Shown here piece by piece: positions 42,666-63,233 of a DNA stretch of 64,000 bases. The notes under the pieces are model-generated. The model made no database searches. It saw only the letters and a program-made list of their open reading frames with translations, and was not told the origin of the DNA. This DNA comes from Patescibacteria group bacterium (GTDB lineage: Bacteria > Patescibacteriota > Patescibacteriia > Magasanikbacterales > GWA2-37-8). A program made the translations under genes and the position numbers. The stretch is from contig SCQK01000014.1 in the NCBI GenBank assembly GCA_004321885.1, positions 1 through 64,000 of the forward strand, written 5' to 3'. Positions within the stretch are counted from its first letter, which is position 1. Every line of letters starts with the position of its first letter.

Positions 42666-42689
42666 GATTCCAGCGTTCGCTGGAATGAC
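42666..42689. repeat. Family B hairpin (inverse orientation): GATTCCAGCG-ttc-GCTGGAATGAC, overlapping the bactofilin start codon
   Basis: Its reverse complement GTCATTCCAGCGAACGCTGGAATC matches the consensus of the 62324 and 63209 copies; the ATG at 42685 lies in the 3' arm. Confidence 0.5.
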
Positions 42690-43179
42690 AAGTAAAAATA
42701 TTATGATTTTTCAAAGAACTCCCAAATATCAGGAAGCCGAGGAAAGTTTTCAAAACGAAGAGGCGGCCGCGGGCGCCGATAACGTGGAAACCGTGGTGGG
42801 GCCATCGGTAAACGTGGAGGGCGATTTTTCATCCGAGGGCAATATCGTGGTGAAAGGCACGGTGGCCGGCAGTGTGCACACCAGCAAGCATTTGTCCGTG
42901 GAAGAGGGCGCCAAGATAATGGCCAACGTCAAAGCCGGCAGCGCGCGCGTTGCGGGCGAGGTAAAGGGCAATATGAAAATAAAAGAAACTTTGGAGCTGA
43001 CCGCCTCGGCCCGGGTGCTGGGCGATATTGAGGTGAAGACCATACAGATAGAATCTGGCGCCTTGCTTTACGGGCGAATAATCATGCCCGGCCTGGAGGG
43101 AATGGAACCGAAAACTTCGCGTCAAAAATACACGACCCGCAAGAACGATTCCTTGCCGGCAGAGAGTTTGCTGAATTAA
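42685..43179 (+). CDS. Bactofilin-like (beta-helical cytoskeletal) protein
   Basis: Repetitive V/G-rich beta-strand repeats (NIVVKGTVAGSVHTSKHLSVEEGAKIMANVKAGSARVAGEVKGNMKI) typical of the bactofilin DUF583 core. Confidence 0.65.
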   Translation: MTSKNIMIFQRTPKYQEAEESFQNEEAAAGADNVETVVGPSVNVEGDFSSEGNIVVKGTVAGSVHTSKHLSVEEGAKIMANVKAGSARVAGEVKGNMKIKETLELTASARVLGDIEVKTIQIESGALLYGRIIMPGLEGMEPKTSRQKYTTRKNDSLPAESLLN

Positions 43180-43186
43180 AAAGTTT

Positions 43187-43228
43187 TTGGAATTTGGTCA
43201 TTGAATTTTGGGGCTTTTCAGTTTTATG
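43187..43228 (+). promoter_or_regulatory. Family C motif TTGGAATTTGGTCATTGAATTTTGG...TTTTATGTATGTTT upstream of and including the start of the DAGK-like gene
   Basis: TTGGTCATTG core and identical ATGTATGTTT start context. Confidence 0.4.
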
Positions 43229-43987
43229 TATGTTTACTTGTACGACAACTTTTTGCGCAAAGATAAATTTTCTTCCACAGTCAAAGCCATGGAAGTGCGG
43301 CTGACGGACTATGGCATTGCTGGCAAAATTTTGCGCCTGAACAATTATATAGACGCCAAGCAGGTGGTGGATGACGAAATCAAAAGAGGCGCCAAGACAG
43401 TGGTGATAGCGGGCAACGACGCCACTTTCGGCCAGATACTTTCGCGCAGCGCCACGTGCGACTGTATTTTCGGTTTTTTGCCGGTTGGCCCGGGCAACAC
43501 CATCGCCGAGGTTTTGGGCATCCCAGCCGGAGTAGAAGCCTGCGCAGTACTTTCGCGCCGCCTGAAAGAACGGCTGGACGTGGGCTGGGTAAACAGCCGT
43601 TATTTTGTCTCGCAATTGCACGTGCCGCCGGCCAAAATAGAAGTGATTTACGATGAAAAATTTAAGGTCTCCAGCGTTGATAAGATGGAAGTGGTAGTTT
43701 GCAATTTACAGCCGTATTTTTGGCAAGACGGCAAAAACGCGCCGCGCCGGGTGGTGCATCCGCAAGACGGCAAGTTAGAAGCCTTTTTGCGGCCGTTGAC
43801 AAAAAAGGGCTGGTGGGGGTATAAGTACGAGGAACCGAGCGTTTTTCCCTTTGAGGAAATGGAAATTGTGGGGCGCGAGGCCTTTGCCGTGCGGGCCGAC
43901 GGCAAGGTTTCCAAAGAAGTAAAGGTAAAAATCAAGCTGGCGCGCAACAAGGTGCGGATGATAGTGGGAAGGGAGAGAAAATTTTGA
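43226..43987 (+). CDS. Diacylglycerol-kinase-catalytic-domain-like lipid kinase (YegS/BmrU family), divergent
   Basis: VIAGNDATFGQIL (degenerate GGDGT) and LPVGPGNTIAEVLGIP (equivalent to PLGTGNDFAR). Confidence 0.5.
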   Translation: MYVYLYDNFLRKDKFSSTVKAMEVRLTDYGIAGKILRLNNYIDAKQVVDDEIKRGAKTVVIAGNDATFGQILSRSATCDCIFGFLPVGPGNTIAEVLGIPAGVEACAVLSRRLKERLDVGWVNSRYFVSQLHVPPAKIEVIYDEKFKVSSVDKMEVVVCNLQPYFWQDGKNAPRRVVHPQDGKLEAFLRPLTKKGWWGYKYEEPSVFPFEEMEIVGREAFAVRADGKVSKEVKVKIKLARNKVRMIVGRERKF

Positions 43988-43996
43988 AATAGAGAA

Positions 43997-44083
43997 GCCC
44001 GGGTGGCGAAACTGGAAGACGCATATCCTTGAGGTGGATACGGCCGCAAGGCCTTGGAGGTTCGAGTCCTCTCCCGGGCACCA
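43997..44083 (+). tRNA. tRNA-Leu (anticodon GAG), class II with long variable arm, CCA encoded
   Basis: Acceptor stem GCCCGGG/CCCGGGC, anticodon stem TATCC/GGATA with loop TTGAGGT, variable arm CGGCCGCAAGGCCTTG, T-arm GGAGGTTCGAGTCCTCT, and 3' ACCA. Confidence 0.85.
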
Positions 44084-44092
44084 AATAAACTT

Positions 44093-44335
44093 ATGCGCAT
44101 CATTATTGGCATCATCATGGCGCTCGCGGGCGTGCTCGTGATAATAAAATCCGAGTGGTTTATCGCGAACTTCGGCGCCAGCGCCTGGGCCGAAGAAAAG
44201 CTGGGCACGAGCGGCGGCACGCGCCTAATGTACAAGCTGTTGGGGCTATCTTTTATTTTTATCGGCTTCCTTTTGATTACAAATTTAATCGGCGGATTTT
44301 TGATGGCGACAGTGGGCAGATTGTTTATCAGATAG
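44093..44335 (+). CDS. Small two-TM membrane protein, hypothetical
   Basis: MRIIIGIIMALAGVLVII...; the track start 44054 lies inside the tRNA, so the first ATG after the tRNA is used. Confidence 0.4.
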   Translation: MRIIIGIIMALAGVLVIIKSEWFIANFGASAWAEEKLGTSGGTRLMYKLLGLSFIFIGFLLITNLIGGFLMATVGRLFIR

Positions 44336-44339
44336 TAAT

Positions 44340-46337
44340 ATGATTCTGATAAAAAAAGACGACGAACTTGACATCGCGATAAGGAAAAGTCACAGTTACG
44401 CATTTTCAACGCCCCATAGCGGGTTGCATTTAATTGAAATCGTCGCGAAAGCCAATAGTTGGTGGCAAAATTTGAAAAGTTTTAAGTCATTTTTAAACGA
44501 CGATGATTTGGTGGTGAAAATAGATGAAACGGAATTTCCAAAATTAAGCGGCCGGAAGGGGTTATTCAATGGAGAGGCGGCGTGGAACGGCGACAACCTG
44601 AAAGGAAATCTAAAGACGGGAATATTTTTGGTTAGTTTGGCATCGGGCGCTCACGTGATAAATTTTTTCGCCGATCAAAAGCCGGTGTTAAAAGGTGTAA
44701 GAATTTATAAAATCGAGCAGGGAGAACCGTATGTGCCGGAAAAAAATAATCCGCCACAAGACGGAGACAGGCGGCAGTGGATGACAATCGCCCTGATTGA
44801 TTTGAGTTTGAAAAGTTTGTTTATCAGCGCTGTCGTTGGCGCTCATCAGAGAGATGACAGCGATATCAAGTTGATTGTTGACGGAAAAATTATACAAAAT
44901 GAGCAAAAAAATTCACACAAGAATTGGTTTTGGTGTGGTAATTTATCAAAAGGAGAACCAAGGGAACTCAACAAAGAGTTGAATCTGCCGAAAGGGTTGC
45001 ATTATGTGGAATTATGGGCGGACAAGACGCCAAAGTTATTGGAATTAAGAATCAATGTCGATAAAGATGATTCCAGAATTAAAGCCAAAATTATTTGGCA
45101 AACCGCCGCGTTAAGGAGAGAGCCAAATCAAAAGGCAGATACTGTAGCTGAGATTTCCGAAGGCAAACAAGTAATAATATTAGAAAAGGCGGTTTTGGGG
45201 AAAAGACCCGCGAACGTAAATGGCGTGTTACTTTCTTCCGACCGTTGGCACAAGGTTGAGTATGAAAACAATGTCGGGTATATTTATTCGGAGGCGGTAG
45301 AGATTGAGGGAGAGGATCCAAAAACGATTGAAAAATTTATTTTGAGCAAAGCCGAAGAAGTGGGAGCAGACGGATGCCTGATGGCGGCGATTGCCAAACG
45401 TGAATCGCATTTTTTCCCCTATGCGGTTTCCGGCGCTGACGCGAAGGGTTTGTTTCAAATGGTAAAAACGTCCCTGACCGATGTAAACGATATTTTTGAC
45501 AAAAAAATTGATAATCTTTTTAATATCGCGCAATCTACAGAAGCGGCAATTTTGTATTTTACAATAATTAGAGAAAGATATAAAAATAAGAACGATTTCC
45601 TTAGAAGATGCTTAGCCGCATGGAATTGGGGCAAAGGAAACGTTGATCCAGGTAATTCATTTTTAATGAAAAAATTGCCTGGCGAAACCCGGATATTTAT
45701 CAACGAGGTTCTAAAAAATTATAATGATTGCAAAAGTAGGTCTGTTTTAAAAGGAAAAATAAATTTATTATTCTTATTGATGAGCGGTTTTTTTATTTCC
45801 GCGATATTATTATCGTTTGCCATTTTTTTTGCTTTCGATGACAAAAATTATAAAGAGCCGCCGTCATATTATGGCGACAATTTTGTTTTAGCCGAGCATG
45901 AAATAGACGTGGATGGCGATGGAACAAAAGAAAAACTGGTCGTCATTAGAGACAAATTAAACTCAACATTTGGCATGACAAGAAACATTTTAGTGAGAAG
46001 TAACGGAAGGTTGCGTGAGTTGTCAAAAGAGGAGGGAAATTTTCTTTGGTGGAAGGTGGGCGATTTCAACGATAACGGCAAAGTTGATATCGCAATTCAT
46101 TATGGATATACCGGTAGCGGTGAGTTTGGAAAGTTTTATTTACAAGAGTGGAACGGAAAAGATTTTACGACTGTATTTATCAGAGAAGATGTTGACAATA
46201 AAGTAAATTTTGTTGATTTGAATCACGATGGAATGGAAGAGATTATTTATACTTATCGGCTGTCAAAGTGGAAGCCAGATAGGTATGATATTTATCAGTG
46301 GAATGCTTTTTCTTCCAAATTAATCCTATATAAGTAA
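44340..46337 (+). CDS. Membrane-anchored lytic transglycosylase (SLT domain), paralog of 14827..16674, with FG-GAP-like C-terminal repeats
   Basis: SLT region MAAIAKRESHFFPYAVSGADAKGLFQM; TM LLFLLMSGFFISAILLSFAIFFAF; C-terminal DVDGDG, DFNDNGKVD and DLNHDGMEE motifs; N-terminal domain shared with the paralog. Confidence 0.7.
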   Translation: MILIKKDDELDIAIRKSHSYAFSTPHSGLHLIEIVAKANSWWQNLKSFKSFLNDDDLVVKIDETEFPKLSGRKGLFNGEAAWNGDNLKGNLKTGIFLVSLASGAHVINFFADQKPVLKGVRIYKIEQGEPYVPEKNNPPQDGDRRQWMTIALIDLSLKSLFISAVVGAHQRDDSDIKLIVDGKIIQNEQKNSHKNWFWCGNLSKGEPRELNKELNLPKGLHYVELWADKTPKLLELRINVDKDDSRIKAKIIWQTAALRREPNQKADTVAEISEGKQVIILEKAVLGKRPANVNGVLLSSDRWHKVEYENNVGYIYSEAVEIEGEDPKTIEKFILSKAEEVGADGCLMAAIAKRESHFFPYAVSGADAKGLFQMVKTSLTDVNDIFDKKIDNLFNIAQSTEAAILYFTIIRERYKNKNDFLRRCLAAWNWGKGNVDPGNSFLMKKLPGETRIFINEVLKNYNDCKSRSVLKGKINLLFLLMSGFFISAILLSFAIFFAFDDKNYKEPPSYYGDNFVLAEHEIDVDGDGTKEKLVVIRDKLNSTFGMTRNILVRSNGRLRELSKEEGNFLWWKVGDFNDNGKVDIAIHYGYTGSGEFGKFYLQEWNGKDFTTVFIREDVDNKVNFVDLNHDGMEEIIYTYRLSKWKPDRYDIYQWNAFSSKLILYK

Positions 46338-46338
46338 T

Positions 46339-46887
46339 ATGTCTCACTCCGGCACGGCGCTTCTCAATCCATACAAGATTTTCGCGGACATCAAATTGGC
46401 CAAGGGCATGCGCGTGGCTGATTTGGGTTGCGGCCGCACCGGTCATTTTGTTTTTCCGGCGGCCAAGACCGTGGGCGACACCGGCATTGTTTATGGAGTG
46501 GACGTGATGAAGGATGTCCTGGAAAATATTAAGAGCACGGCGCGCGCCGAGGGTTGCGCCAACGTGCAAACTGTCTGGTCCGACCTGGAGCGCGCGGGCA
46601 AGACGCCTCTGCCTCCGGCCAGCGTGGATGCGTGTTTTTTCGTCAATGTTCTGTTCCAGGTAAAAGACAAACGTTCCGCCATTGCCGAAGCGGCCCGCTT
46701 GCTCAAAAAACAGGGCCATCTGGTGATAATTGACTGGCAAAAAAAATTGGGGATGTTGGGTCCCGCGCCAGGGCAAATGTTAATTATTGACACGCTCGTT
46801 GACTTGGCCGGCCAGAGCATGTTAAAATTGGCCAAACAATTTCAGGCCAGCGATTATCATTTCGGCTTAATTTTCGCAAAGGAATAA
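46339..46887 (+). CDS. Class I SAM-dependent methyltransferase
   Basis: Motif I VADLGCGRTG and motif post-I VYGVDV. Confidence 0.7.
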   Translation: MSHSGTALLNPYKIFADIKLAKGMRVADLGCGRTGHFVFPAAKTVGDTGIVYGVDVMKDVLENIKSTARAEGCANVQTVWSDLERAGKTPLPPASVDACFFVNVLFQVKDKRSAIAEAARLLKKQGHLVIIDWQKKLGMLGPAPGQMLIIDTLVDLAGQSMLKLAKQFQASDYHFGLIFAKE

Positions 46888-46893
46888 AACCTC

Positions 46894-46932
46894 GCCCCAC
46901 CCCTCTTAATCAAGGGGAGTGAGGGGGAGGAG
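46894..46932. repeat. Family A C/G palindromic element
   Basis: CGCCCCACCCCTC-ttaatcaa-GGGGAGTGAGGGGGAGGAG; a GGAGG lies 9 nt before the downstream ATG. Confidence 0.55.
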
Positions 46933-46939
46933 TAAAAAC

Positions 46940-47338
46940 ATGTCTTGGAAAAATTTATTTGATACTCATTATTGGTTCAGCCAGCCTTATATCGCGCATG
47001 GAAAAGCGCTGTGGTTGCTGGTGGGTTTGTGCCTACTACATATTGTAGTAGGCCTATTTTTACGGGCTTTTTCATACTACCAAAAAGATAAAGTCAACGC
47101 TTCTATTTGCAAACGTTTCAGTTCACTGCTCGCGACAACGGGCGTTTTGGGCGTAATCTGGCTGTTTTTACGTCAGGAGCGCATTCCTTTTTTGGCCTGG
47201 CGTTTTTGGCTGCTGATTTTGGCCGGCATATACGTCTGGTGGCTGTCGTCGGTTGTACGTTTTGCTGTAAAAAGAGCGCCGCAAATACGGCAGGAGCAAG
47301 AGCAGCGGGCGCGGTTGGGGAAGTATTTGCCTAATTAG
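46940..47338 (+). CDS. Membrane protein, hypothetical
   Basis: Three hydrophobic helices; a GGAGG from the upstream repeat element sits 9 nt before the ATG. Confidence 0.45.
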   Translation: MSWKNLFDTHYWFSQPYIAHGKALWLLVGLCLLHIVVGLFLRAFSYYQKDKVNASICKRFSSLLATTGVLGVIWLFLRQERIPFLAWRFWLLILAGIYVWWLSSVVRFAVKRAPQIRQEQEQRARLGKYLPN

Positions 47339-47340
47339 CT

Positions 47341-47697
47341 ATGCCGTCAAGAAATCAGAAACTGGGTCAGTGGGGAGAAGAGCAGGCCTGCGCTTTCCTG
47401 CGCCGAAACGGATTCAGAATCATTGAAAGAAATTTTCACGCCACGGTCGGAGAAATAGACGTCGTCGCCGCGCAGGGCGGCGATTATTATTTTATAGAAG
47501 TAAAGACGCGCGAGACACCGGAGATGGCCACGGATTTGGCGGTGACGGAGCTGAAAAAGCACAAGCTGGAGAAGACCATGCGCCATTATTGCTATCGCCG
47601 CGACATCAAAAATGTTTCGCTCATCATGGCCGGCTTGCTCGTGGAAATCAGGCGGCCGGAAAAGAAGCTGTTTTTTCGTTTTTGCGTGTATTATTGA
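47341..47697 (+). CDS. YraN-family (UPF0102) endonuclease
   Basis: LGQWGEEQACAFLRRNGFRIIERNFHATVGEIDVVA...YYFIEVKTR is the YraN signature. Confidence 0.75.
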   Translation: MPSRNQKLGQWGEEQACAFLRRNGFRIIERNFHATVGEIDVVAAQGGDYYFIEVKTRETPEMATDLAVTELKKHKLEKTMRHYCYRRDIKNVSLIMAGLLVEIRRPEKKLFFRFCVYY

Positions 47698-47753
47698 CGA
47701 AAAAAGTTTTTTCTGTTATGATGGCGTCAAATAATTAAAATAACTTTTTACGT

Positions 47754-48332
47754 ATGGATTTCAAAAAAGAAAAAACATTCGTGATGATAAAACCAGACGG
47801 CGTGAAGAAAGGTCTGATTGGAGAAATAATCGGACGTTTTGAACAGCGCGATTTGAAGGTAGTGGCTTTGGAGATGTTTCAGCCCACGACCGAGCAAATA
47901 GACGAACACTATCCAAAAGAGGAAGCCTGGATAAGGCGTCTGGGCCAAAAAACCTTGAGCACCTATGAAAAATACGGCCTTGACCCGATGAATGATTTGG
48001 GCACGGCCGATGATTTGGCCATCGGCCAAATGGTGCGCAAGTGGGTGATAGACTATATGACTTCGGCCCCGCTCGTGCGCCTGGTGGTGGAAGGCGTGCA
48101 CGCGGTGGATATGGTGCGCAAAATTTGCGGCGTCACTTTGCCGAACTTGGCTGACGCCGGCACTATCCGCGGCGATTACTCGGTGGATTCTCCGGCCGTG
48201 GCCAACATGGAAAAACGCGCGGTCATGAACCTGGTGCACGCGTCCGAAACCGCGGCCGAGGCCGAGCACGAGATAGGGCATTGGTTTGGGAGCAGGGAAG
48301 TGATATTTGACTACAAGAGATTTACCGACTAA
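47754..48332 (+). CDS. ndk: Nucleoside diphosphate kinase (long form with insertion)
   Basis: TFVMIKPDGVKKGLIGEIIGRFE...GTIRGDYS...H at the expected position; ~40 aa longer than canonical NDK. Confidence 0.75.
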   Translation: MDFKKEKTFVMIKPDGVKKGLIGEIIGRFEQRDLKVVALEMFQPTTEQIDEHYPKEEAWIRRLGQKTLSTYEKYGLDPMNDLGTADDLAIGQMVRKWVIDYMTSAPLVRLVVEGVHAVDMVRKICGVTLPNLADAGTIRGDYSVDSPAVANMEKRAVMNLVHASETAAEAEHEIGHWFGSREVIFDYKRFTD

Positions 48333-48337
48333 AAAAA

Positions 48338-48361
48338 CGGCGCCCAAAGCGCCGCTTTTTT
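48338..48361. terminator. Bidirectional-type intrinsic terminator (A7-CGGCGC-ccaaa-GCGCCG-T6) after ndk
   Basis: Perfect 6-bp GC stem flanked by an A-run and a T-run, 6 nt after the stop; a TATAAT at ~48384 then precedes gpsA. Confidence 0.7.
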
Positions 48362-48417
48362 AATTGAAAATAAATAAAGAAGAGAGTATAATGTTTTCAT
48401 AACAGTAACATACGGGT

Positions 48418-49419
48418 ATGCCAAAAAAAGCAAAAATCGCGGTGTTGGGGGCCGGCAATATGGGCACGGCCATGGCCCAGGTGCTGGCCAAAAATGGCCA
48501 TCAAGTGTATCTGTGGAATCACGAGGGCGACCGGGAGCCGCTGGAGCAGATAAAGCGCTGGCGCGAGAACAAAAAATATTCTCCTGGTATAAAGCTGTCG
48601 CCAAAGATTGTGCCGGAGAAAGATTTGCGCGCCGCGGTCGCGGACGCGGAAATTATTTTTTTCGCGGTGCCCAGCAATTTTATGTCGGCTGTGGTCAGGC
48701 GCTCTGTCGCGTTTTTAAAAAAAGACGCGGTTTGCGTGGATGTTTCCAAGGGCCTGGACGAAAAGACCATGACGATAATTCCCCGGGTCATGCAAGGTTG
48801 TTTGCCAAAAAATTTGAATGCCAAAGTGGTTTCTATTTCCGGCCCGGCCATTGCCAACGAGCTCGCCGCGGGCGGGTTCACGGCCATGAATATCGCGGGC
48901 GCGGACAAAGCGGCCGTGGCCAAAGTCAAGCGCGCCATGGAAAGCAAAAATTTGCGCCTGCGCGCCTGCGCGGATATTCTCGGCGTGGAAATCACCGGCT
49001 CTTTCAAGAATGTTTACGCCATTGCCATGGGCGTCTGCGACGGCCTGAAAATGCCGCTCAACACCAAGGCCGCTCTTTTGGTGCTGGCGCTTAAAGAAAT
49101 CGGCCGGCTGATAAAAAAGATGGGCGGCCGGGCCGAGACGGTTTACGATTTGGCGGGCCTGGGCGACGTGGTGGGCACGGGTTTGTCTTACATCAGCCGC
49201 AACCGCAGATTTGGAGAATATCTGGCGCGCGGCTTAGCGGCCAAAAGCGCCCTCAAAAAAGTGGGCCAGACGGTTGAAGGCCTGGGCGCCAGCCGGGCTT
49301 TGATTTGTTTGGCCGGAAAATACCGGTTGAAAATGCCTTTTGCCGAGACAATTTTTCAAATTACCGAGGGCAAGGCGAAAGCGAAAGCGGCAATGGCAAA
49401 ACTGCTGGCGCATTATTGA
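48418..49419 (+). CDS. gpsA: NAD(P)H-dependent glycerol-3-phosphate dehydrogenase
   Basis: KIAVLGAGNMGTAMAQVLA N-terminal Rossmann motif and a GpsA-like C-terminal domain. Confidence 0.85.
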   Translation: MPKKAKIAVLGAGNMGTAMAQVLAKNGHQVYLWNHEGDREPLEQIKRWRENKKYSPGIKLSPKIVPEKDLRAAVADAEIIFFAVPSNFMSAVVRRSVAFLKKDAVCVDVSKGLDEKTMTIIPRVMQGCLPKNLNAKVVSISGPAIANELAAGGFTAMNIAGADKAAVAKVKRAMESKNLRLRACADILGVEITGSFKNVYAIAMGVCDGLKMPLNTKAALLVLALKEIGRLIKKMGGRAETVYDLAGLGDVVGTGLSYISRNRRFGEYLARGLAAKSALKKVGQTVEGLGASRALICLAGKYRLKMPFAETIFQITEGKAKAKAAMAKLLAHY

Positions 49420-49432
49420 AAACGTTAAAGCT

Positions 49433-51151
49433 ATGCTCGCAAGGAAAGAAGACCGCTCGTTAAAAATTATTTCCGGTCTTTTGGTTTTGGCGGCCTTGCT
49501 AATTGTTTGGAAGCTCTTTTTACTGCAGATTTTAAGCAATGATTTTTACGCGGCCTTGGCCCAAAACACGCACGAGATTTACCGCCAGCTCAATCCCAAG
49601 CGCGGCAACATTTATTTTTCCGACGCGCGCGGCCGGGCCGAATATCCGGCCGCCATCAGCCGGCTCTATTATCTGGTTTACGGGGTGCCGCGCGATATTT
49701 CCAGAGCCGACGTCGCTTCCACCGCGGTATATTTAGCCGGCTTGCTCAAATTTGACCCCGACGAAGCCAAAGAGCTGGAGGGTAAATTGAAAAAGGCCGA
49801 CGACCCCTACGAACCGATCGCCTCCAAAGTGGAGATGGATGTGGTAGATAAAATTAAAGACGCGAATTTGAAAGGAATTAATTTTGCCGGCCGCGAGTAT
49901 CGCTATTATCCGGAAAAAAACAGCGCGGCGCATGTGCTTGGGTTTGTGGGCGCAAACGATGTCGGCGATTTGACGGGGCGTTATGGCTTGGAGGGCGCGT
50001 GGGACAGCGAGCTGGCCGGAAGGAGCGGATTTTTGGCCGGTAGCGCCGGAGCCCTGGGCGGCTGGATACCCCTGGCCGGCCGCACCTTAAGAAAGGCGGT
50101 CAACGGCACGGATTTTGTTTTAACGGTTGACCGCGCCCTGCAGTATCGCGCCTGCGATAAATTGCGCGCCGGCTTGGAAGAGTTTAAGGCCAAAAGCGCG
50201 GCTTTGGTACTCATGGAAGCGAAAAGCGGGGCCGTGCTGGCCATGTGCAGTTTGCCGGATTTTGACCCGAACGATTATGGCAGCGTGAAAGATGTTTCTT
50301 ATTTTAACAACACGGCGATTTTCACGGCCTATGAACCGGGTTCGGTTTTCAAGCCCGTTACCATGGCCATTGGATTGGAACTGGGCCTGGTGGAGCCGGA
50401 AACGGTTTTTACGGACCCGGGCGAGCGGGTGATAAATGATTTTAAGATACACAACGCCCTGAACAAGAAATACGGCACGGTAAGCATGACAAAAGTTTTG
50501 GAAAATTCCATCAATACAGGCATGATTTGGGTGGAAGAAAAAATTGGCCCGCTCCGGTTCAAGGAATATGTGGAAAAATTCGGCTTTGGCGCGAAGACCG
50601 GCGTAAACCTGGACACCGAGTCGGCCGGCGATATTTCGTCGTTTGACAAGAAGGCCCCGATTTACAATGCCAACGCCTCGTTTGGCCAGGGATTTACGGC
50701 CACGCCCATTCAGTTGGCCGCGGCTTACGCGGCGCTGGCCACCGGCCGTTTGCCCCGACCCAACGTGCTCAAAGAAACGCGGGCCGAGAACGGCAAGATT
50801 GACCGGCCGGAAAGAGAGAGCGCAGCCGTTATATCGGCGCGCACGCAAAAACTCATTACGGCCATGCTGATTTCCGTGGTGGAAAACGGCAGTGGCTACA
50901 AAAAAGCCAAACTAAACGATTATTTCGCGGCCGGCAAAACCGGCACGGCCCAGATAGCGCGTCAGGGCAAATACGGCGAGGAGAGCAACCATACTTTCGC
51001 CGGTTATTTTCCGGCCACTGACCCCCGTTTTGTGCTGGTGGTAAAATACGAAGCCCCGCAAAGGCAATGGGCCGAATCCACCGCCGCGCCGGTCTTTCGC
51101 GAGGTGGCCAAACTCACGCTTGAATATTTCGGAATCGCGCGCGATAAATAA
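49433..51151 (+). CDS. Class B penicillin-binding protein (PBP2/FtsI transpeptidase)
   Basis: SVFK (SxxK), SIN (SxN) and KTGTA (KTG) in the correct order; N-terminal TM. The ATG at 49433 is preferred because the track start overlaps gpsA. Confidence 0.85.
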   Translation: MLARKEDRSLKIISGLLVLAALLIVWKLFLLQILSNDFYAALAQNTHEIYRQLNPKRGNIYFSDARGRAEYPAAISRLYYLVYGVPRDISRADVASTAVYLAGLLKFDPDEAKELEGKLKKADDPYEPIASKVEMDVVDKIKDANLKGINFAGREYRYYPEKNSAAHVLGFVGANDVGDLTGRYGLEGAWDSELAGRSGFLAGSAGALGGWIPLAGRTLRKAVNGTDFVLTVDRALQYRACDKLRAGLEEFKAKSAALVLMEAKSGAVLAMCSLPDFDPNDYGSVKDVSYFNNTAIFTAYEPGSVFKPVTMAIGLELGLVEPETVFTDPGERVINDFKIHNALNKKYGTVSMTKVLENSINTGMIWVEEKIGPLRFKEYVEKFGFGAKTGVNLDTESAGDISSFDKKAPIYNANASFGQGFTATPIQLAAAYAALATGRLPRPNVLKETRAENGKIDRPERESAAVISARTQKLITAMLISVVENGSGYKKAKLNDYFAAGKTGTAQIARQGKYGEESNHTFAGYFPATDPRFVLVVKYEAPQRQWAESTAAPVFREVAKLTLEYFGIARDK

Positions 51152-51162
51152 TTTTATAACTT

Positions 51163-55619: not shown

Positions 55620-55631
55620 GCATGTTCGCCA

Positions 55632-55907: not shown

Positions 55908-55935
55908 ACAAAGTTATTAAAGTTAATTTTGACTT

Positions 55936-55964
55936 ATTGTAGATAAAAAAAGTGATATTGTCAA
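55936..55964 (-). promoter_or_regulatory. Sigma70-type promoter for rpmA on the minus strand (TTGACA, 17-nt spacer, TACAAT)
   Basis: Reverse complement of 55959..55964 is TTGACA and of 55936..55941 is TACAAT, ~30 nt upstream of the rpmA start at 55907. Confidence 0.55.
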
Positions 55965-56022
55965 GGGGTCTAAAATTTGATAACATTAATAAATCCCCAA
56001 GTCTCAATGCCTAATGCCAATT

Positions 56023-56065
56023 CGTTTTGGTCATTGGGGTTTGGTCATTGTAATTTTAAGTTATG
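56023..56065 (+). promoter_or_regulatory. Family C motif, tandem: TTTTGGTCATTGGGGTTTGGTCATTGTAATTTTAAGTTATG
   Basis: Two direct copies of TTGGTCATTG spaced 14 bp apart, ending at the ATG of the 56063 membrane-protein gene. Confidence 0.4.
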
Positions 56066-56416: not shown

Positions 56417-56417
56417 T

Positions 56418-57506
56418 ATGCGTCAACGCACGGACCGTTTTTTTCTGGCTTCGGTATTTGTTTTGGTGATTTTCGGCTTGATGGCGCTTACCTCGGCCTC
56501 GGCGCCTTTGGGTTTTGCCAAATTCAACGACAGCTATTTTTTCATCAAAAAACAACTGTTGTTCGGCCTGGCTCCGGGCGTGTTGCTCTTTTTTTTATTG
56601 GCGCACGCGCGCTATGAGATTTGGAAAAAATTGGCCTGGCTCGTGTACGCGTTCTCTATTATATTATTGCTCTTGGTTTTTATTCCGGGCGTTGGTCTGG
56701 TAATCAATGGCGCGCACAGCTGGCTCGGAATTTTTGGTTATACTTTTCAGCCGGCCGAATTCGCCAAGCTGGCGATGATAATAATGCTGGCCGGTCTGCT
56801 GGCCGAGCCGCGTAAAGACTATGCGGATTTCAAAACCGGACTCCTGCCGATTTTAGCGGTTATCGCGCCCATTCCGCTGCTCATTTTGCTTCAGCCCGAC
56901 GTGGGCACCCTCTCCATTGTGGCGGTGATTATTTTTGGCATGCTGTTTGCGGGCGGCATCAGGCGGGCGCATCTCTTTGTTTTGGGCGTTGTGGCTGTTT
57001 TGGGTCTGGTGGCATTGCTGGTCGCGGCGCCCTACCGTGCCACGCGTCTCACCACCTTTTTGCATCCGGAGCTGGACCCAAAAGGCGTGGGCTACCAAAC
57101 AAACCAGGCGCACCTGGCCATCGGCTCCGGCGGCTGGTGGGGTTTGGGGCTGGGGCATTCGCGGCAAAAGTTCCAATATCTGCCTGAGGTGCACGCTGAT
57201 TCCATTTTCGCCATTATCGGCGAAGAGATGGGTTTTATCGCCACCACGATTTTTGTGGTGTTGCTGGCGGTTATCGGTCTAAAAGGTCTTAAAATCGCCC
57301 AAAGGGCGCCCGACCCATTCGGCCGTTTACTTGTCTCGGGCATTATGGTATGGTTTATGTGGCAGTCTTTTTTGAATATTGGCGGCATGGTGGGGCTCTT
57401 GCCTATCACGGGCGTGCCCCTGCCTTTTGTCAGCAGTGGCGGTTCGGCGCTGGTCGTGGCCCTTGCGGCCATGGGCATTGTGGCGAGCGTCAGCAGAAAT
57501 TCGTAA
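56418..57506 (+). CDS. SEDS-family peptidoglycan glycosyltransferase (FtsW/RodA)
   Basis: Ten TM helices and the GSGGWWGLGLGHS...PEVHADSIFA signature. Confidence 0.8.
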   Translation: MRQRTDRFFLASVFVLVIFGLMALTSASAPLGFAKFNDSYFFIKKQLLFGLAPGVLLFFLLAHARYEIWKKLAWLVYAFSIILLLLVFIPGVGLVINGAHSWLGIFGYTFQPAEFAKLAMIIMLAGLLAEPRKDYADFKTGLLPILAVIAPIPLLILLQPDVGTLSIVAVIIFGMLFAGGIRRAHLFVLGVVAVLGLVALLVAAPYRATRLTTFLHPELDPKGVGYQTNQAHLAIGSGGWWGLGLGHSRQKFQYLPEVHADSIFAIIGEEMGFIATTIFVVLLAVIGLKGLKIAQRAPDPFGRLLVSGIMVWFMWQSFLNIGGMVGLLPITGVPLPFVSSGGSALVVALAAMGIVASVSRNS

Positions 57507-57508
57507 AT

Positions 57509-58513
57509 ATGCGCGTCTTAGTCACCGGCGGGGCAGGATTCATGGGTTCTCATTTCGTAAAATATTTGTTAAAAAATTACCCGGATTACAAGGTGGTGAA
57601 TTTTGATAAGCTGACCTACGCCGGCAACCCGGACAACTTAAAGGAAGTTGAAAAAAATCCCAATTACGTTTTTGTCAAAGGCGATATCTGCGACGCGGGC
57701 GTTTTGGAAAAGGCGATTAAGGACAATAAGATTGAAGCGATTGTAAATTACGCGGCCGAGACCCACGTGGATCGTTCCATCATGGACCCGACGGTTTTTT
57801 TACGCACCGACATCTTTGGCGTTTACAATTTGCTGGAAGCGGTCAGAAAATTCGGTTTGAAAAAAATGGTGCAGATTTCAACGGACGAAGTGTTTGGCAG
57901 CGCGCGCGAGGGGAGCTTCACCGAGGATTCGCCCTTCGCGCCCAACAGCCCCTACGCTTCTTCCAAGGCCGGCGGCGACCATCTGTGCCGCTCTTATTGG
58001 GTTACTTATCAAACGCCGGCGGTGGTCACCCACAGTTGTAATTTTTACGGTTCCAATCAATTCCCTGAAAAAGTGATTCCCTTGTTTATTACTAATCTTT
58101 TGGAGGGTAAAAAAGCGCCGCTTTACGGCGACGGCCAGAATGTGCGCGAATGGATACACACGAGCGATCATTGCGCGGCCGTGGACGCGGTTTTGCACCA
58201 GGCCGAAGCGGGCGCGGTGTACAACATCGGTTCAGGCGACGAAATCAAGAACATTGAATTGGTGGAAAAGATATTGAAAATAATGGGATTGGGAAAAACG
58301 ATGATTGAATACGTGAAAGATCGGCCGGGTCATGACAGACGCTATTCCATCAATCACAAAAAAATCAGCCAAGAGCTGGGCTGGAAGCCGAAGATGTCTT
58401 TTGATGAAGGGCTTAAAGCCACGATTGACTGGTATCGCGCCAATGAGTGGTGGTGGAAGAAATTGAAGAGCGGGGAGTATCTGGAATATTACAAGAAGCA
58501 ATATAGCGTATGA
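57509..58513 (+). CDS. rfbB: dTDP-glucose 4,6-dehydratase
   Basis: MRVLVTGGAGFMGSHF and the YASSKAGGDHL catalytic YxxxK; the ATG at 57509 follows the ftsW stop. Confidence 0.85.
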   Translation: MRVLVTGGAGFMGSHFVKYLLKNYPDYKVVNFDKLTYAGNPDNLKEVEKNPNYVFVKGDICDAGVLEKAIKDNKIEAIVNYAAETHVDRSIMDPTVFLRTDIFGVYNLLEAVRKFGLKKMVQISTDEVFGSAREGSFTEDSPFAPNSPYASSKAGGDHLCRSYWVTYQTPAVVTHSCNFYGSNQFPEKVIPLFITNLLEGKKAPLYGDGQNVREWIHTSDHCAAVDAVLHQAEAGAVYNIGSGDEIKNIELVEKILKIMGLGKTMIEYVKDRPGHDRRYSINHKKISQELGWKPKMSFDEGLKATIDWYRANEWWWKKLKSGEYLEYYKKQYSV

Positions 58514-59340
58514 AGATTTTAATCATCGGAAATGGATTTTTAGGAAAGCGATGCGCGCAGGAATGGCCCGACGCTTTTTTGTCCGACAAGTTTATAAAGA
58601 CCACGGAAGATGTTTTGACTTTGCTTGACGAGCACCAGCCCGACTCCGTGCTCAACGCGGCCGGAGTAGTAGGCAAGCCCAACGTGGATTGGTGCGAGAC
58701 GCATCAAACTGAGACCATCGCCGGAAACACTATTTTACCTTTGCTTATCGCCGAGGCCTGCCAGAAAAAAGTCGTGTATTTTTTGCATATGGGTACTGGT
58801 TGCGTGTTTTACGGTAAGTCGCCGAAAAGAGGCGGCTGGCGCGAAAATGACTATGCCAATCCAGTGGCTGTCTACACCCGCACCAAATACGCGGCTGATT
58901 TGGCGCTTTCCACTTTGCCCAACATCGGCATCGCGCGTATACGCATGCCCATAGACAGCGTTCCTTCACCGGCCAATCTCGTCACCAAATTGGCGTCGTT
59001 TGAGCAAGTGGTTGACGTGGAAAACAGCGTGACGGTGGTGGATGACATGATAAAAGCATTTCGCGCGTTGTTGGAAAAAAAAGCGGTCGGGATTTTTCAC
59101 GTTACCAATCCGGGCAGTATTAAACACAAAGAAATAATGGCGATGTATAAAGAATTTGTTGATTCGCGGCATACCAACGGGTGGATAAGCGAGCGTGATT
59201 TGGTAAAAACCGGCATCGCGAAAAAAATGCGTTCCAACAACATAATGGCGTCGGAGAATTTGGAGAAACTGGGGATAAAGATGAGGCCGATAAAAGAGGC
59301 GCTAAGGGATACGTTGAAAAAATATGCAAAAAATTTATAG
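58510..59340 (+). CDS. rfbD: dTDP-4-dehydrorhamnose reductase-like (RmlD family)
   Basis: MKILIIGNGFLG...VLNAAG...YTRTKYAADLA matches RmlD N-terminal and catalytic regions; ATGA overlap with rfbB. Confidence 0.65.
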   Translation: MKILIIGNGFLGKRCAQEWPDAFLSDKFIKTTEDVLTLLDEHQPDSVLNAAGVVGKPNVDWCETHQTETIAGNTILPLLIAEACQKKVVYFLHMGTGCVFYGKSPKRGGWRENDYANPVAVYTRTKYAADLALSTLPNIGIARIRMPIDSVPSPANLVTKLASFEQVVDVENSVTVVDDMIKAFRALLEKKAVGIFHVTNPGSIKHKEIMAMYKEFVDSRHTNGWISERDLVKTGIAKKMRSNNIMASENLEKLGIKMRPIKEALRDTLKKYAKNL

Positions 59341-59352
59341 ATTAATTTTTTT

Positions 59353-60426
59353 ATGCAAAATATTTTAGATAATCTGGAAGAAATAAAAAAAATAGACAGC
59401 CAGAATATGCTGGGGAGTTTGGAATTGTTGGGGAAACAGGTGGCGCAGATAGATGGACACGCCAAAGAGGTAAAGATGCCCAAAGCATACGGAGCAGTCA
59501 AAAATATTGTTATTTTGGGTATGGGTGGTTCGGCTTTGGGTGCTGACATAATAAAAAGCGTTTTTAATGATGAATTGAAAGTCCCACTGGAAGCCGCGCG
59601 CGATTATCATTTGCCGGGTTATGTTGACGCGAATTCGTTTGTAGTTGTTTCCAGCTATTCGGGGACAACGGAAGAATGTTTGGCGGGGCTATCCGAAGCA
59701 AAAAAGAAAAAAGCCAAGCTGGCGATAATTTGTTCCGGAGGGGTATTGGCGCAAGAAGCGAAGAAAAACAAAATACCGGCCCTGGTTTTTTCCACGGAAA
59801 ATAATCCCTGTGGCTCGCCGCGCATGGGTTTGGGCTATTCCATCGTCGGCTTGTTGGTTGTTCTTCATAAAGCCGGTCTGGTTGATCTGAAAAATAGCGA
59901 CATAAAAATGATGAAAGATGTGGTGGATAAATATCAAAAAAAATTCAGCGCCAGTTCGCCGGGTTCGTCCAATTTGGCCAAACAATTCGCCGAGAAAACC
60001 CAACGTAAAAGCGTCTGGTTCGTGGCTTCCGAGCATCTGGCCGGCAATGCCCATGTGGCAGCCAATCAGACCAATGAAAACACCAAACGTTTTGGCGGAT
60101 ACTTTCTTATTCCGGAGTTGAACCACCATCTGATGGAAGGAATGATGAACCCGGAAAGCAACAAAGACAATTTGCTGTTCGTATTTTTTGAATCGCTTTT
60201 GTATGACAAGCGCGTGCAAAAGCGCTACGAGGTGAGCAAAGAGGTATTGAACAAAAATAGTGTTCAATGGGTTTCATACGTTTGCGAGGAGAAAGACAGG
60301 TTGTCGCAGGCATGTGAACTTTTAGTATTCAGCGGTTATTTGAGTTTTTATAGCGCGATGCTGGCGGGCATAGACCCGACCGCCATACCGTTCGTGGATT
60401 ATTTTAAGGAGCAGTTGAAAAAGTAG
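59353..60426 (+). CDS. SIS-domain bifunctional phosphoglucose/phosphomannose isomerase (archaeal-type PGI/PMI)
   Basis: IVILGMGGSALGADI...VVVSSYSGTTEE SIS motifs; ~350 aa two-SIS architecture. Confidence 0.65.
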   Translation: MQNILDNLEEIKKIDSQNMLGSLELLGKQVAQIDGHAKEVKMPKAYGAVKNIVILGMGGSALGADIIKSVFNDELKVPLEAARDYHLPGYVDANSFVVVSSYSGTTEECLAGLSEAKKKKAKLAIICSGGVLAQEAKKNKIPALVFSTENNPCGSPRMGLGYSIVGLLVVLHKAGLVDLKNSDIKMMKDVVDKYQKKFSASSPGSSNLAKQFAEKTQRKSVWFVASEHLAGNAHVAANQTNENTKRFGGYFLIPELNHHLMEGMMNPESNKDNLLFVFFESLLYDKRVQKRYEVSKEVLNKNSVQWVSYVCEEKDRLSQACELLVFSGYLSFYSAMLAGIDPTAIPFVDYFKEQLKK

Positions 60427-60427
60427 T

Positions 60428-61273
60428 ATGGATTTATCGGTAATTACCGTTACCTGGAACGCGGAAAAAGAAATCGCCGAGCAAATTCGCTCGGTGTTTT
60501 CCGGCTGTGAGAAGAGCAGCGTGGAAGAAATTATCGCTGATAATGGTTCGGCCGACCAGACCATACGGCTTATTAAAGAAAATTTTCCGCAAGTAAAACT
60601 GATTGAGAATGGCGCCAATCTGGGTTTTGGCGCGGCCAACAACGCGGGCCTGCGCCTGGCTAACGGCGAGTTCGTGCTTTTTCTCAATCCGGATATGAAG
60701 GTTTTTCCGGGCTCGTTGGATAAAATGGTTGAATGGATGAAGGCGCGTCCGGAAGTCGGGCTGGCTGGATGCAGGTTGGTTGATGAAAACGGCGATTTGA
60801 ATCAAGAGGCCAAGCCGCGACGTTTTCCCGGATTGTGGGACCAACTGGCCTTGGTGTTAAAGATTCCTCATTTATTTCCTTCAATTTTGAACCGCTATCT
60901 GTGGAAAGATTTTAACGGCGACAAAGAACAAGAGGTTGATTCAGTGCGCGGGGCTTTTATGCTGGTGCGGCGCGAGGTCTGCCAGAAACTCGGCTGGGGT
61001 TTTGATCCGCGTTATTTTTTTTGGTTTGAAGATGTTGATTTGTGCCGCGAAGTGAAACGGCTGGGATATAAAGTGATATATACGCCGATCGTTTCTTGCC
61101 TTGACCGCGTGGGGCAGAGTTTCAAAAAACGCGCTTCTCTCTGGAAACAAAAACAATTCACCAAAAGCATGATTCAATATTTTCGCAAGTGGGAACCGTG
61201 GTATAAGTGGATTATAATTGCCGCGTTTAGACCGATTGGTATTGCTTTGGCGTGGTTAGCAAGTCTTGTATGA
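60428..61273 (+). CDS. Family 2 glycosyltransferase
   Basis: VITVTWNAEKEI...IIADNGSAD...NLGFGAANN. Confidence 0.75.
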   Translation: MDLSVITVTWNAEKEIAEQIRSVFSGCEKSSVEEIIADNGSADQTIRLIKENFPQVKLIENGANLGFGAANNAGLRLANGEFVLFLNPDMKVFPGSLDKMVEWMKARPEVGLAGCRLVDENGDLNQEAKPRRFPGLWDQLALVLKIPHLFPSILNRYLWKDFNGDKEQEVDSVRGAFMLVRREVCQKLGWGFDPRYFFWFEDVDLCREVKRLGYKVIYTPIVSCLDRVGQSFKKRASLWKQKQFTKSMIQYFRKWEPWYKWIIIAAFRPIGIALAWLASLV

Positions 61274-62316
61274 CGAAACTCTCCGTGCACCTGGTCGCCT
61301 GGAACGGCGCGAAATATATCCCGCATTTGTTTGAGTCCTTGAGAAAACAGACCTTCAAGGATTGGTTTTTGCTGGTTATAGACAACGGTTCGGAGGACAA
61401 CGCGGTTGAGTTAATTGAAAAAGAGTTGGCGAATTTTGCGCAACCGCACCGTTTGATAAAAAACAAAGAAAACATCGGCTTCGCGGCCGGTCATAATCAG
61501 GCGTTTCGCGAAACCGAGAGCGAATATTTTTTGCCTCTTAACGAAGATATGTATTTGGCGCCCGACTGTTTGGAAAAAATGGTGTTGTTTATGGAACAAA
61601 ACTCCGACGCCGCGGCCGTGGCCCCTCGTTTGATGAGATGGAATTTCCCCACGGCTTTTTCCACCCAAGTGGACGCTTTGGGCATGAAAATTTTGCGCAA
61701 TCACCGGGTGGTGGAGCAATACACACGTCGCGAATGGAGCGAAGCGTATGAATTGGTGAAAAATAAAATTATTAGCCGCGGCAACGAGCGCGTTTTGGAG
61801 GTCTTTGGCGTTTCCGGAGCGTTTCCGCTTTTGCGACGTAGCGCCATAAAAGAAATTTTGCTGGAAGGCCAGATTTTTGACGAAAGTTATCATTCTTATA
61901 AAGAAGACGTGGATTTTGCCTTGCGTTTGGCGTCGGCCGGGCACAAGTCGTTTGTTTTGCCCGATGCCGTGGCCTATCACGACCGTACCGGCGCCGGCCC
62001 GGCCGAGCTAAGCGACGCCGCGGCGCTGGCTAACAAGAAAAAACAGCCCCCCCACGTCCGTTATCACAGCTACAAGAACCATTTGATGTCCTTGTACAAA
62101 AATGAGTACTGGCAGAATTTCACCCTTGATTTTCCTTTCATTTTGTGGTATGAAATCAAGAAGTTCGTTTATTATCTTTTCGCTGAACCAAAGGTTTTAA
62201 CCGGTTTGGCCGAAATCTGGCGCGCCCGGCGCGGTTTGCGGCAGAAAAGGAAAATTATAAAGAGTTTAAGGAAAATTGACTGGCGCGAAATGAGGCGCTG
62301 GTGGACCAAAATGTAG
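61270..62316 (+). CDS. Family 2 glycosyltransferase
   Basis: LSVHLVAWNGAKYI...LVIDNGSED...NIGFAAGHN; ATGA overlap with the previous gene. Confidence 0.75.
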   Translation: MTKLSVHLVAWNGAKYIPHLFESLRKQTFKDWFLLVIDNGSEDNAVELIEKELANFAQPHRLIKNKENIGFAAGHNQAFRETESEYFLPLNEDMYLAPDCLEKMVLFMEQNSDAAAVAPRLMRWNFPTAFSTQVDALGMKILRNHRVVEQYTRREWSEAYELVKNKIISRGNERVLEVFGVSGAFPLLRRSAIKEILLEGQIFDESYHSYKEDVDFALRLASAGHKSFVLPDAVAYHDRTGAGPAELSDAAALANKKKQPPHVRYHSYKNHLMSLYKNEYWQNFTLDFPFILWYEIKKFVYYLFAEPKVLTGLAEIWRARRGLRQKRKIIKSLRKIDWREMRRWWTKM

Positions 62317-62323
62317 GATAAAT

Positions 62324-62350
62324 GTCATTCCAGTCCGGGAACTGGAATCC
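62324..62350. repeat. Family B hairpin GTCATTCCAGT-ccggga-ACTGGAATCC between GT2 genes
   Basis: 8-bp perfect stem; ends 10 nt before the ATG at 62360. Confidence 0.5.
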
Positions 62351-62359
62351 AGTCGCATT

Positions 62360-63202
62360 ATGAAGGACATCAACATTGTTTTCGTGAATTATCTGATGAA
62401 AGACGACATCTTGAATGCCGTTTCCAGTATCTTGAAAGATATCGCGGGCGCTTCTTGTGATGTCCAAATTACGGTTGCTGACAATTCGGAAAATAAAGAC
62501 GGAATCAAGGAAGAGTTGGCGACAAAATTTCCACAAATAAAATACGTGAATAGCGGTGGTAATGTCGGGTTTGGTAAGGGCAATGTCGTGGGATTTAAAG
62601 ATACTCCGGCCCGCTATTATTTCGCTCTTAATCCGGACACGGTTATTCCGGAAAATTCCCAAACAATAGAGCGGATAATTAAATTTATGGATGCCAACCC
62701 AAAAGTAGGTTGTATAGGCCCGAAGATGGTAAATGTCGAGGATAATTCCCTGCAACATTCGTGCTATCGTTTTGATTTGCCGTCCATACTGATAAAACCG
62801 CTCAAGCAGATGAATTTTGACAGAAAATATGAGTGGGTGAAAAAACACGCGGACCGTTTGCTGATGAAAGATTTTGACCACAACGAAACAATGCCCGTGG
62901 ATTGGGTGCTCGGCGCGGCCATGGTGGTGAGAAAAGAAGTGACCGACGCCATTGGCTGGTTTGACGAAAGATATTTCATGTACATGGAGGACTGCGACTG
63001 GTGCCGCGTCATGTGGGAAAATGGCTGGCCGGTTTATTATGTGCACGACATAGTAATCACCCATAAACACGAAAGGGCTTCGGCCAAAGTGCCCGGCGTT
63101 TTCAAGGCCTTTATAAAAAACAAGCTGGCCAGAATACATTTTTACAGCTGGCTCAAGTACATGTGGAAATGGCGCGGCAATCATAAATATTACGCCTATT
63201 AG
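62360..63202 (+). CDS. Family 2 glycosyltransferase
   Basis: NIVFVNYLMKDD...VADNSENKDG...NVGFGKGN. Confidence 0.75.
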   Translation: MKDINIVFVNYLMKDDILNAVSSILKDIAGASCDVQITVADNSENKDGIKEELATKFPQIKYVNSGGNVGFGKGNVVGFKDTPARYYFALNPDTVIPENSQTIERIIKFMDANPKVGCIGPKMVNVEDNSLQHSCYRFDLPSILIKPLKQMNFDRKYEWVKKHADRLLMKDFDHNETMPVDWVLGAAMVVRKEVTDAIGWFDERYFMYMEDCDWCRVMWENGWPVYYVHDIVITHKHERASAKVPGVFKAFIKNKLARIHFYSWLKYMWKWRGNHKYYAY

Positions 63203-63208
63203 TCAACC

Positions 63209-63233
63209 GTCATTCCCGCGAAGGCGGGAATCC
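63209..63233. repeat. Family B hairpin GTCATTCCCGC-gaag-GCGGGAATCC between GT2 genes
   Basis: Same flanks as 62324; the stem is changed by compensatory substitutions (AGT/ACT becomes CGC/GCG); ends 7 nt before the ATG at 63240. Confidence 0.5.

Follow-up and report, generated by a model that had tools for sequence, protein, structure and literature searches.

The stretch of DNA analysed here, 64 kb of a Candidatus Magasanikbacteria genome (Patescibacteria, also called the candidate phyla radiation, CPR) and referred to below as the window, carries three short hairpins that all sit between co-directional + strand genes. The first, at 42666-42689 on the - strand (GTCATTCCAGCGAACGCTGGAATC), separates a histidine kinase gene from a bactofilin gene, and the other two, at 62324-62349 (GTCATTCCAGTCCGGGAACTGGAATC) and 63209-63232 (GTCATTCCCGCGAAGGCGGGAATC) on the + strand, lie between successive genes for family 2 glycosyltransferases (GT2). 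A first-pass annotation of the sequence had reported the three hairpins at these positions and in these orientations, and had taken them for RNA structures under selection. Our analysis bears out the hairpins and points to a different explanation: they are probably solo copies of the palindromic DNA repeat family that comprises the Neisseria Transformation Sequence (NTS) and the Ssn-related motif (SRM), and as such recognition sites of the single-stranded DNA (ssDNA) nuclease Ssn.

Three oriented hairpins in short spacers

The 42666 copy lies within the 83-nt spacer that runs from the stop of the histidine kinase gene (40961-42619, + strand; Pfam HisKA_7TM, HisKA and HATPase_c) to the start of the bactofilin gene (42703-43179, + strand; Pfam PF04519). 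Some 20 kb farther on, a GT2 gene (61252-62316, + strand; Pfam PF00535), whose start is uncertain and is put at about 61270 by the gene call on the Logan contig L001, is followed by a 43-nt spacer (stop at 62316, next ATG at 62360) that holds the 62324 copy. The second GT2 gene (62360-63202, + strand; assigned by Pfam), in which residue 1 is conserved across 80 orthologous loci, is flanked on both sides by + strand hairpins, the 63209 copy occupying the 37-nt spacer between its stop (63202) and the ATG (63240) of a third GT2 gene (63240-64000, + strand; assigned by Pfam, with orthologues found) that extends past the end of the window. The two hairpins end 10 nt upstream of ATG 62360 and 7 nt upstream of ATG 63240, in agreement with the distances of 7-10 nt given in the first-pass annotation.

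The same annotation had placed the bactofilin ATG in the 3' arm of the 42666 hairpin, a claim that does not hold against the orthologues. The database protein (P0001) is called from ATG 42685 and begins with six spurious residues, MTSKNI, encoded by the hairpin arm GGAATGAC. An alignment of 16 orthologues gives the start as MIFQRTPK..., the MIFQ/MMFQ/MFQ N-terminus matching ATG 42703 in 15 of 15 aligned proteins. Thirteen of these 15 start there and the remaining two have short called extensions, the closest one (P0002) having the same spurious MTSK extension as the window. By this alignment, ATG 42685 is an annotation artefact and the true start is ATG 42703, 13 nt past the hairpin; the repeat can in this way create false start codons.

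Oriented hairpins of the form GTC-ATTCCNNN-loop-NNNGGAAT-C occur exactly three times in the window, with about 0.01 expected by chance. Likewise, the pattern GTCATTCC-N6-20-GGAATC is found 3 times (0.01 expected), a count reached in none of 100 shuffles (0/100), and a chance origin of the three hairpins is excluded. With their flanks, the copies span 63208-63235 (+ strand, CGTCATTCCCGCGAAGGCGGGAATCCAG; stem 63212-63219/63224-63231, loop GAAG), 62323-62352 (+ strand, TGTCATTCCAGTCCGGGAACTGGAATCCAG; stem ATTCCAGT/ACTGGAAT, loop of 6 nt) and, in the opposite orientation, 42663-42690 (- strand, reading TGTCATTCCAGCGAACGCTGGAATCTAA on that strand). Each copy forms a perfect 8-bp stem whether folded as RNA or as DNA, and the predicted DNA-parameter energies of the stems are -5.7, -10.5 and -6.8/-7.0 kcal/mol, the value of -10.5 belonging to the 63208-63235 copy. 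In all three, GTC precedes and C follows the palindrome. The inner three stem pairs differ between the copies (AGT/ACT, CGC/GCG and AGC/GCT) and are complementary in every case, so the paired substitutions described in the first-pass annotation are real. On their 3' side the hairpins are followed by CAGTCGCA, by CAGGTTTA and, for the third copy as read on the mRNA strand, by AAGTAAAA.

A covariance model built from 25 family copies (window and relatives) and run on the window with filters off recovered all three hairpins (E = 4e-12, 3e-11 and 5e-7). The 63208-63235 copy scored 47.8 bits, 42663-42690(-) 44.8 bits and 62323-62352, with E = 5e-7, 31.6 bits. Below E = 1.3 the remaining hits were the opposite strands of two of the three hairpins and nothing else, at 11-13 bits compared with 45-48 bits for the named strand. 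Since the opposite-strand scores are 35 bits lower, the hairpin family is strongly oriented. A weak hit at 55955-55978 (E = 1.3) resembles the flanks without a hairpin. A generic scan of the window for GTC-stem-loop-stem-C hairpins returned 8 hits, compared with 4.2 in shuffles, among which only the three known copies combine a perfect 8-bp stem with a GTCAT head. One further GTCAT-headed hit, at 40712-40734, is intragenic and has a 7-bp stem with one mismatch; it was treated as a chance occurrence.

Identity with the NTS/SRM repeats

The NTS has the consensus CGTCATTCCCGCGMAVGCGGGAATCYRG, for which one mismatch is permitted, and contains the older dRS3 repeat, ATTCCC-N8-GGGAAT; the degenerate SRM is defined as HGTCWYN(0-2)YYVSBRHN(0-5)WNVSBRGN(0-2)RNCYNB (PMC11893778, Nat Commun 2025). 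The Ssn proteins are single-domain GIY-YIG nucleases of about 94-100 aa (cd10448), and ssn genes, found in many phyla, are typically bracketed by such hairpins (PMC11893778). SsnA, of 94 aa, binds and cuts the hairpin only as ssDNA, not as double-stranded DNA or RNA; the C just 3' of the palindrome is the most crucial base for binding, and the three bases 5' of it (GTC) matter most for cleavage (PMC11893778).

The 63208-63235 copy agrees with the NTS consensus at 28 of 28 positions, with 0 mismatches, and is also the sole exact match to the SRM in the window (shuffled windows average 0.4 exact matches). Its segment 63212-63231 fits the dRS3 definition exactly. The copy at 42663-42690(-) is 1 substitution away from the SRM and 4 from the NTS, two of the latter being a compensatory pair, and 62323-62352 is 2 substitutions from the SRM, its longer loop leaving no alignment to the NTS. 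NTS/SRM is a family of oriented palindromic DNA repeats of 24-30 nt, built as [C]GTC, 8-bp stem, loop of 4-6 nt, stem and C[YRG], and the window copies share with it the GTC head, the C tail and the predicted 8-bp stem-loop. They are also intergenic and placed amid surface-polysaccharide genes, as in NTS/SRM. With regard to dRS3, the likeness is confined to 63212-63231; the other two copies do not fit, and the dRS3 definition omits the oriented flanks, which are the conserved feature here. The first-pass annotation had itself named membership of a longer known repeat, such as an insertion sequence (IS) terminal repeat, as an outcome that would speak against its interpretation, and NTS/dRS3/SRM is in essence such a repeat.

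These matches add a new host lineage, Candidatus Magasanikbacteria, to a repeat-nuclease system described in 2025, with one copy identical to the Neisseria consensus. The host, a CPR bacterium from a group absent from the main text of the Ssn paper (PMC11893778), is one way in which the present case departs from the published one. The others are the low density of copies, the lack of an ssn gene in the window, and the ATTCCA/TGGAAT found in two copies in place of ATTCCC/GGGAAT.

The hairpins and their junctions in relatives

Orthologues of the GT2 gene 62360-63202 were found at 80 genome loci, nearly all in metagenome-assembled genomes (MAGs) of Candidatus Magasanikbacteria/Patescibacteria and the best of them 80% identical; the bactofilin locus is absent from these 80 GT2-centred loci. 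Many MAG records with this Magasanikbacteria-type GT2 cluster, at 65-80% identity, are titled 'uncultured Gammaproteobacteria bacterium' (L002, L003, L007 and others), and these titles look like taxonomic mislabels. In about 40 relatives the two GT2 junctions consist of overlapping genes or spacers of 0-10 nt, with no such hairpin. Because about 40 orthologous junctions overlap or abut without a hairpin, the GT2-junction hairpins are, on this comparison, lineage-specific insertions of about 30-40 nt and not conserved regulators. In L004 (80% amino-acid identity) the end of one GT2 gene shares 14 nt (ATGCCGCAACCTAA) with the start of the next; at the corresponding place in the window the old ATG reads ACG and is followed by the 37-nt hairpin-bearing spacer and then a new ATG. 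Thus, at 63203-63239, the alignment with L004 makes it appear that an ancestral 14-nt gene overlap gave way to a spacer of 37 nt and a new ATG. The contig L001, which comes from the window's own sample (SRR8426592) and is identical to the window, ends 2 nt past the 63209 hairpin (L001 3463-3488 corresponds to window 63209-63234); this break at the canonical copy hints that the 28-mer is repeated in that sample, where a contig end would be expected, and assemblies may more generally break at the repeat.

The junction orthologous to 63203-63239 is a hot spot. Most relatives have nothing there. It is occupied by an NTS-type +/- hairpin pair in L092 (2150-2230) and L097 (600-712), with the same CAAC...CCAGGTT flanks as in the window, by a hairpin of another type in L074 (10830-10980), and by a complete hairpin-GIY-YIG-hairpin unit in L024 (10850-11310), where a GIY-YIG gene with its own flanking hairpins sits exactly between the two GT2 genes. 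Other subfamilies of the GTCAT...ATC superfamily occur at GT2 junctions in L002, L003, L030 and L074. Together with the window, one gene junction provides a natural series of empty site, solo hairpin, hairpin pair and hairpin-ssn-hairpin, which bears on how the repeats spread.

In this clade the hairpins are associated with GIY-YIG genes. We examined five genes for small GIY-YIG proteins (PF01541, about 100 aa) in related loci (L029, L034, L074, L127 and L024). In the first four, a GTCAT-type hairpin in + orientation lies 8-25 nt upstream of the GIY-YIG ATG, and in L024 the upstream hairpin has no GTC head and lies at a distance of about 40 nt. An inverted hairpin copy follows just downstream of the gene in L029, L127 and L024. 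Hairpins on both sides of a small GIY-YIG gene reproduce the NTS-ssn-NTS layout. The ends of the L029 unit are CGTCATCCCCGCGCAAGCGGGGATCCAG and, inverted, GTCATTCCCGCGTAAGCGGGAATCCAC, and its protein has Y10, Y21 and E68 (GIY tyrosine, YIG tyrosine and REK glutamate) at a spacing equal to that of Y6, Y17 and E64, the residues mutated in SsnA (PMC11893778). The L029 protein belongs to a very large family, with at least 8000 homologues scored. Among the best 120, identity to it is mostly 65-74%, and the few with an organism name span several phyla. Many lie on contigs <1 kb.

Hairpins in the relatives also occur as head-to-head pairs without a gene, and pairs of about 66 nt are found in frame inside GT2 open reading frames (ORFs), adding peptides such as NVIPAKAGIQKSLAMDSRLRGNDS. 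Examples are L080 7267-7332, L097 1203-1288 and a pair within L092 2229-3041, with 18-24 added residues (VIPAKAGIQ...DSRLRGND and variants); the repeat in this way introduces VIPAKAGIQ- and DSRLRGND-type peptides into ORFs. Such in-frame pairs recall the Rickettsia palindromic elements (RPE), a likeness by description and not by sequence comparison, from which the three window copies differ in being intergenic and solo; Rickettsia is among the SRM-rich genomes (PMC11893778). The + member of a pair usually ends in ATCCAG or ATCCAT and the - member in ATCTAR, which suggests that the pairs have two distinct end types; the window copies at 62324 and 63209 have the ATCCAG/ATCCAT type of end and 42666(-) the ATCTAR type. 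Tight +/- pairs of a further, distinct GTCAT subfamily (loop of 5 nt; stem ATCCTGAA/TTCAGGAT or ATGCTGAA/TTCAGCAT) are found at L021 17665-17720, L075 2354-2405 and L084 2311-2391, with no nuclease gene nearby in the stretches examined. Five loci (L010, L052, L054, L056 and L057) have one orthologous hairpin in common, about 540 nt upstream of the GT2 orthologue, in which the stem has changed in situ from ATTCCCGT/ACGGGAAT to ATCCCCGT/ACGGGGAT, a single-mismatch variant being present in 3 of the 5.

At the bactofilin junction, one of three relatives examined has a hairpin, and the two at about 65% identity have none. The closest relative there, L164 (78% protein identity), has a hairpin identical to the 42666 copy.

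DNA repeat or RNA element

The competing explanation put forward in the first-pass annotation is that the hairpins are cis-acting RNA elements of a polycistronic mRNA, acting in intercistronic processing or stability or occluding translation initiation of the downstream gene. Several observations agree with it: the three copies lie in short spacers of co-directional genes, 7-13 nt upstream of the real starts, the stems co-vary, the 42666 copy is conserved, together with its spacer, in the closest relative, and the hairpins found 8-25 nt before GIY-YIG genes in relatives make a role in downstream expression conceivable. Two copies have stable RNA folds (-18.4 and -11.9 kcal/mol, z about -3 to -4.6), the 63208-63235 copy being the most stable at -18.4 kcal/mol (z = -4.6). 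The 62323-62352 copy, however, folds no better than shuffles (-9.5 kcal/mol, z = -1.15). No match was found in the whole window with Rfam at gathering thresholds, and the hairpins neither keep the same position across relatives nor match a curated RNA family, as a conserved cis-regulatory RNA would; about 40 orthologous GT2 junctions lack them, and so do the bactofilin junctions of the two more distant relatives. Scans for terminators and sigma-70 promoters in the vicinity of each of the three copies gave no site at the hairpins. In particular, intrinsic terminators, with a GC-rich stem followed by a T run, were considered and discarded, none of the three hairpins having a terminator-like site, and the promoter scan found no + strand promoter in the conserved histidine kinase-bactofilin spacer.

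In 2.2 Mb of sequence from relatives we counted 35 GTCAT-type hairpins, built on 12 or more distinct stems, compared with 3-6 hairpins in shuffles. The 25 copies aligned for the covariance model have 98% of their cells paired and double changes in 5 of 8 pairs. As these sequences were preselected as hairpins, the unbiased test is one that selects on the flanks only (GTCAT-N16-ATC); by that test 6 of 6 inner pairs are complementary in 21 of 125 sequences, compared with 0 of 372 in shuffles, with a bimodal distribution. Among the 25 copies a G-U wobble occurs in 1 of 200 cells, against 20 double changes, and the GTC and C flank positions are invariant. These flanks are kept on whichever strand carries the copy, including copies antisense to the mRNA. 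Since wobble intermediates are nearly absent, the flanks are kept on either strand and +/- pairs are frequent, the constraint appears to act on a DNA palindrome read on one strand, and the stem covariation points to DNA that must form a hairpin with strand-specific flanks, rather than to an RNA function. In-frame hairpin pairs inside GT2 coding sequence are, for their part, unlike cis-regulatory RNA. Moreover, the same sequence recurs in different phyla as a DNA repeat, and SsnA binds it in no form other than ssDNA (PMC11893778). We therefore consider a cis-acting RNA role unlikely. Of the original interpretation, a real family of co-varying hairpins stands, as does a protein-binding hairpin, which was among the roles listed; selection on RNA structure and a role in intercistronic processing or translational occlusion are not supported, given a known ssDNA repeat, lineage-specific insertion, flanks kept by strand, the single wobble among 200 cells, and hairpins that flank GIY-YIG genes and lie inside ORFs. 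RNA-level side effects on the downstream genes are compatible with all of these results. The case also illustrates that the stem covariation of such a repeat can pass for an RNA signature.

A second alternative stays with ssDNA hairpins, on which tyrosine (Y1/HUH) transposases also act, and takes the copies for elements like the repetitive extragenic palindromes (REPs), or for miniature derivatives, mobilised by a transposase of the REP-associated (RAYT) or IS200/IS605 type. The general likeness is strong: both are short intergenic imperfect palindromes with an oriented head, occur in inverted pairs as in bacterial interspersed mosaic elements (BIMEs), and are presumably propagated through recognition of ssDNA hairpins. 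REPs can influence the stability or translation of adjacent cistrons. Their head is GTAG-like and not GTC, and the gene bracketed by the present hairpins in relatives encodes a GIY-YIG nuclease, not an HUH/Y1 transposase. An IS200-type tnpA and a RAYT-like ORF are present in two related loci, but the IS200 of L021 ends in hairpins of a different kind, and another gene intervenes between it and the GTCAT pair. In the window, phmmer searches with RAYT, IS200 and IS110 queries, a weak test, gave no match and no Y1 transposase or RAYT. The Ssn paper itself likens NTS/SRM to REP-type elements (PMC11893778); as an account of the window copies, though, mobilisation by such a transposase seems very improbable to us. 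That the copies are recombination targets of a site-specific recombinase or phage, as dRS3, the core of 63212-63231, is the target of a specific phage recombinase in Neisseria (PMC11893778), is the least credible of the explanations and can hardly be entertained, as the window yielded no gene for a recombinase or an integrase and none of a prophage, the dRS3 core is missing from two copies, and nothing is integrated at any copy.

The identification of the three hairpins as NTS/SRM copies has to be set against several observations that do not favour it. The histidine kinase-bactofilin spacer (42631-42698) is identical to that of L164 (about 467-534) at 67 of 68 positions, hairpin included, while the flanking coding sequence is far less alike (mean column identity 83% across all 285 aligned columns), and this hints, at the level of the alignment, at constraint or recent exchange, neither of which our explanation needs. 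Two copies have ATTCCA...TGGAAT in place of the dRS3 core ATTCCC/GGGAAT. The density of hairpins, 3 per 64 kb in the window and about 1 per 63 kb in relatives, is low compared with the hundreds of dRS3 copies in pathogenic Neisseria genomes (PMC11893778). No GIY-YIG or ssn gene was found in the 64-kb window by phmmer with three query sequences or by Pfam on about 50 ORFs, nor was any transposase or integrase found there. Searches of NCBIfam and PDB sequences with the L029 GIY-YIG protein gave no match, and the kinship of the Magasanikbacteria proteins with SsnA, with which the L029 protein agrees in catalytic-residue spacing, is putative. We know of no insertion mechanism for such hairpins.

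By analogy with Neisseria (PMC11893778), the GTC...C strand would fold into a hairpin whenever it is exposed as single-stranded DNA, for instance in replication, in repair or when DNA is taken up during transformation; Ssn would bind the stem and the 3' C and nick a few nucleotides 5' of GTC, and nicking would lower the recombination of incoming repeat-bearing DNA. The window copies may then be non-autonomous relics or satellites of an Ssn-hairpin unit, with the nuclease gene elsewhere in the genome or lost. Their insertion would have left GT2 spacers of 43 and 37 nt where there had been about 0-10 nt before, with the loss of one gene overlap. Because the copies would be transcribed inside operons, they probably also change, as a by-product, the context in which translation of the downstream genes starts.

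A broader proposal, which we put forward tentatively and would not ourselves favour as a whole, is that Ssn-hairpin units are an active, uncharacterised kind of mobile element in the CPR. They would encode a single protein, an ssDNA nickase of the GIY-YIG type and about 100 aa long, between two distinct hairpin ends (ATCCAG-type and ATCTAR-type), with solo hairpins and gene-less +/- pairs as non-autonomous derivatives. Such units would have hit the same glycosyltransferase junctions repeatedly and inserted in frame into ORFs, and the window copies would have been retained as spacer and start context of the downstream genes. In CPR cells that naturally scavenge DNA, the copies might in addition control recombination at surface-glycan loci. 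The series of states at one junction and the in-frame insertions would support this proposal.

Some other features of the window lie apart from the hairpins. A segment of low GC content (about 40%) carries an MjaI-type restriction endonuclease and an N6/N4 DNA methylase, with a second DNA methylase farther on (12028-13576 and 23671-24669). A small pair of + strand genes occupies 38949-39563, and its second member (39192-39563) has a PemK toxin domain by the gene calls of an identical Logan contig (L163); a toxin-antitoxin module is the probable identity of the pair. The window also encodes two tandem paralogues of cofactor-independent phosphoglycerate mutase (26787-28331 and 28388-29965) and two paralogous SH3 + SLT transglycosylases (14809-16674 and 44340-46337).

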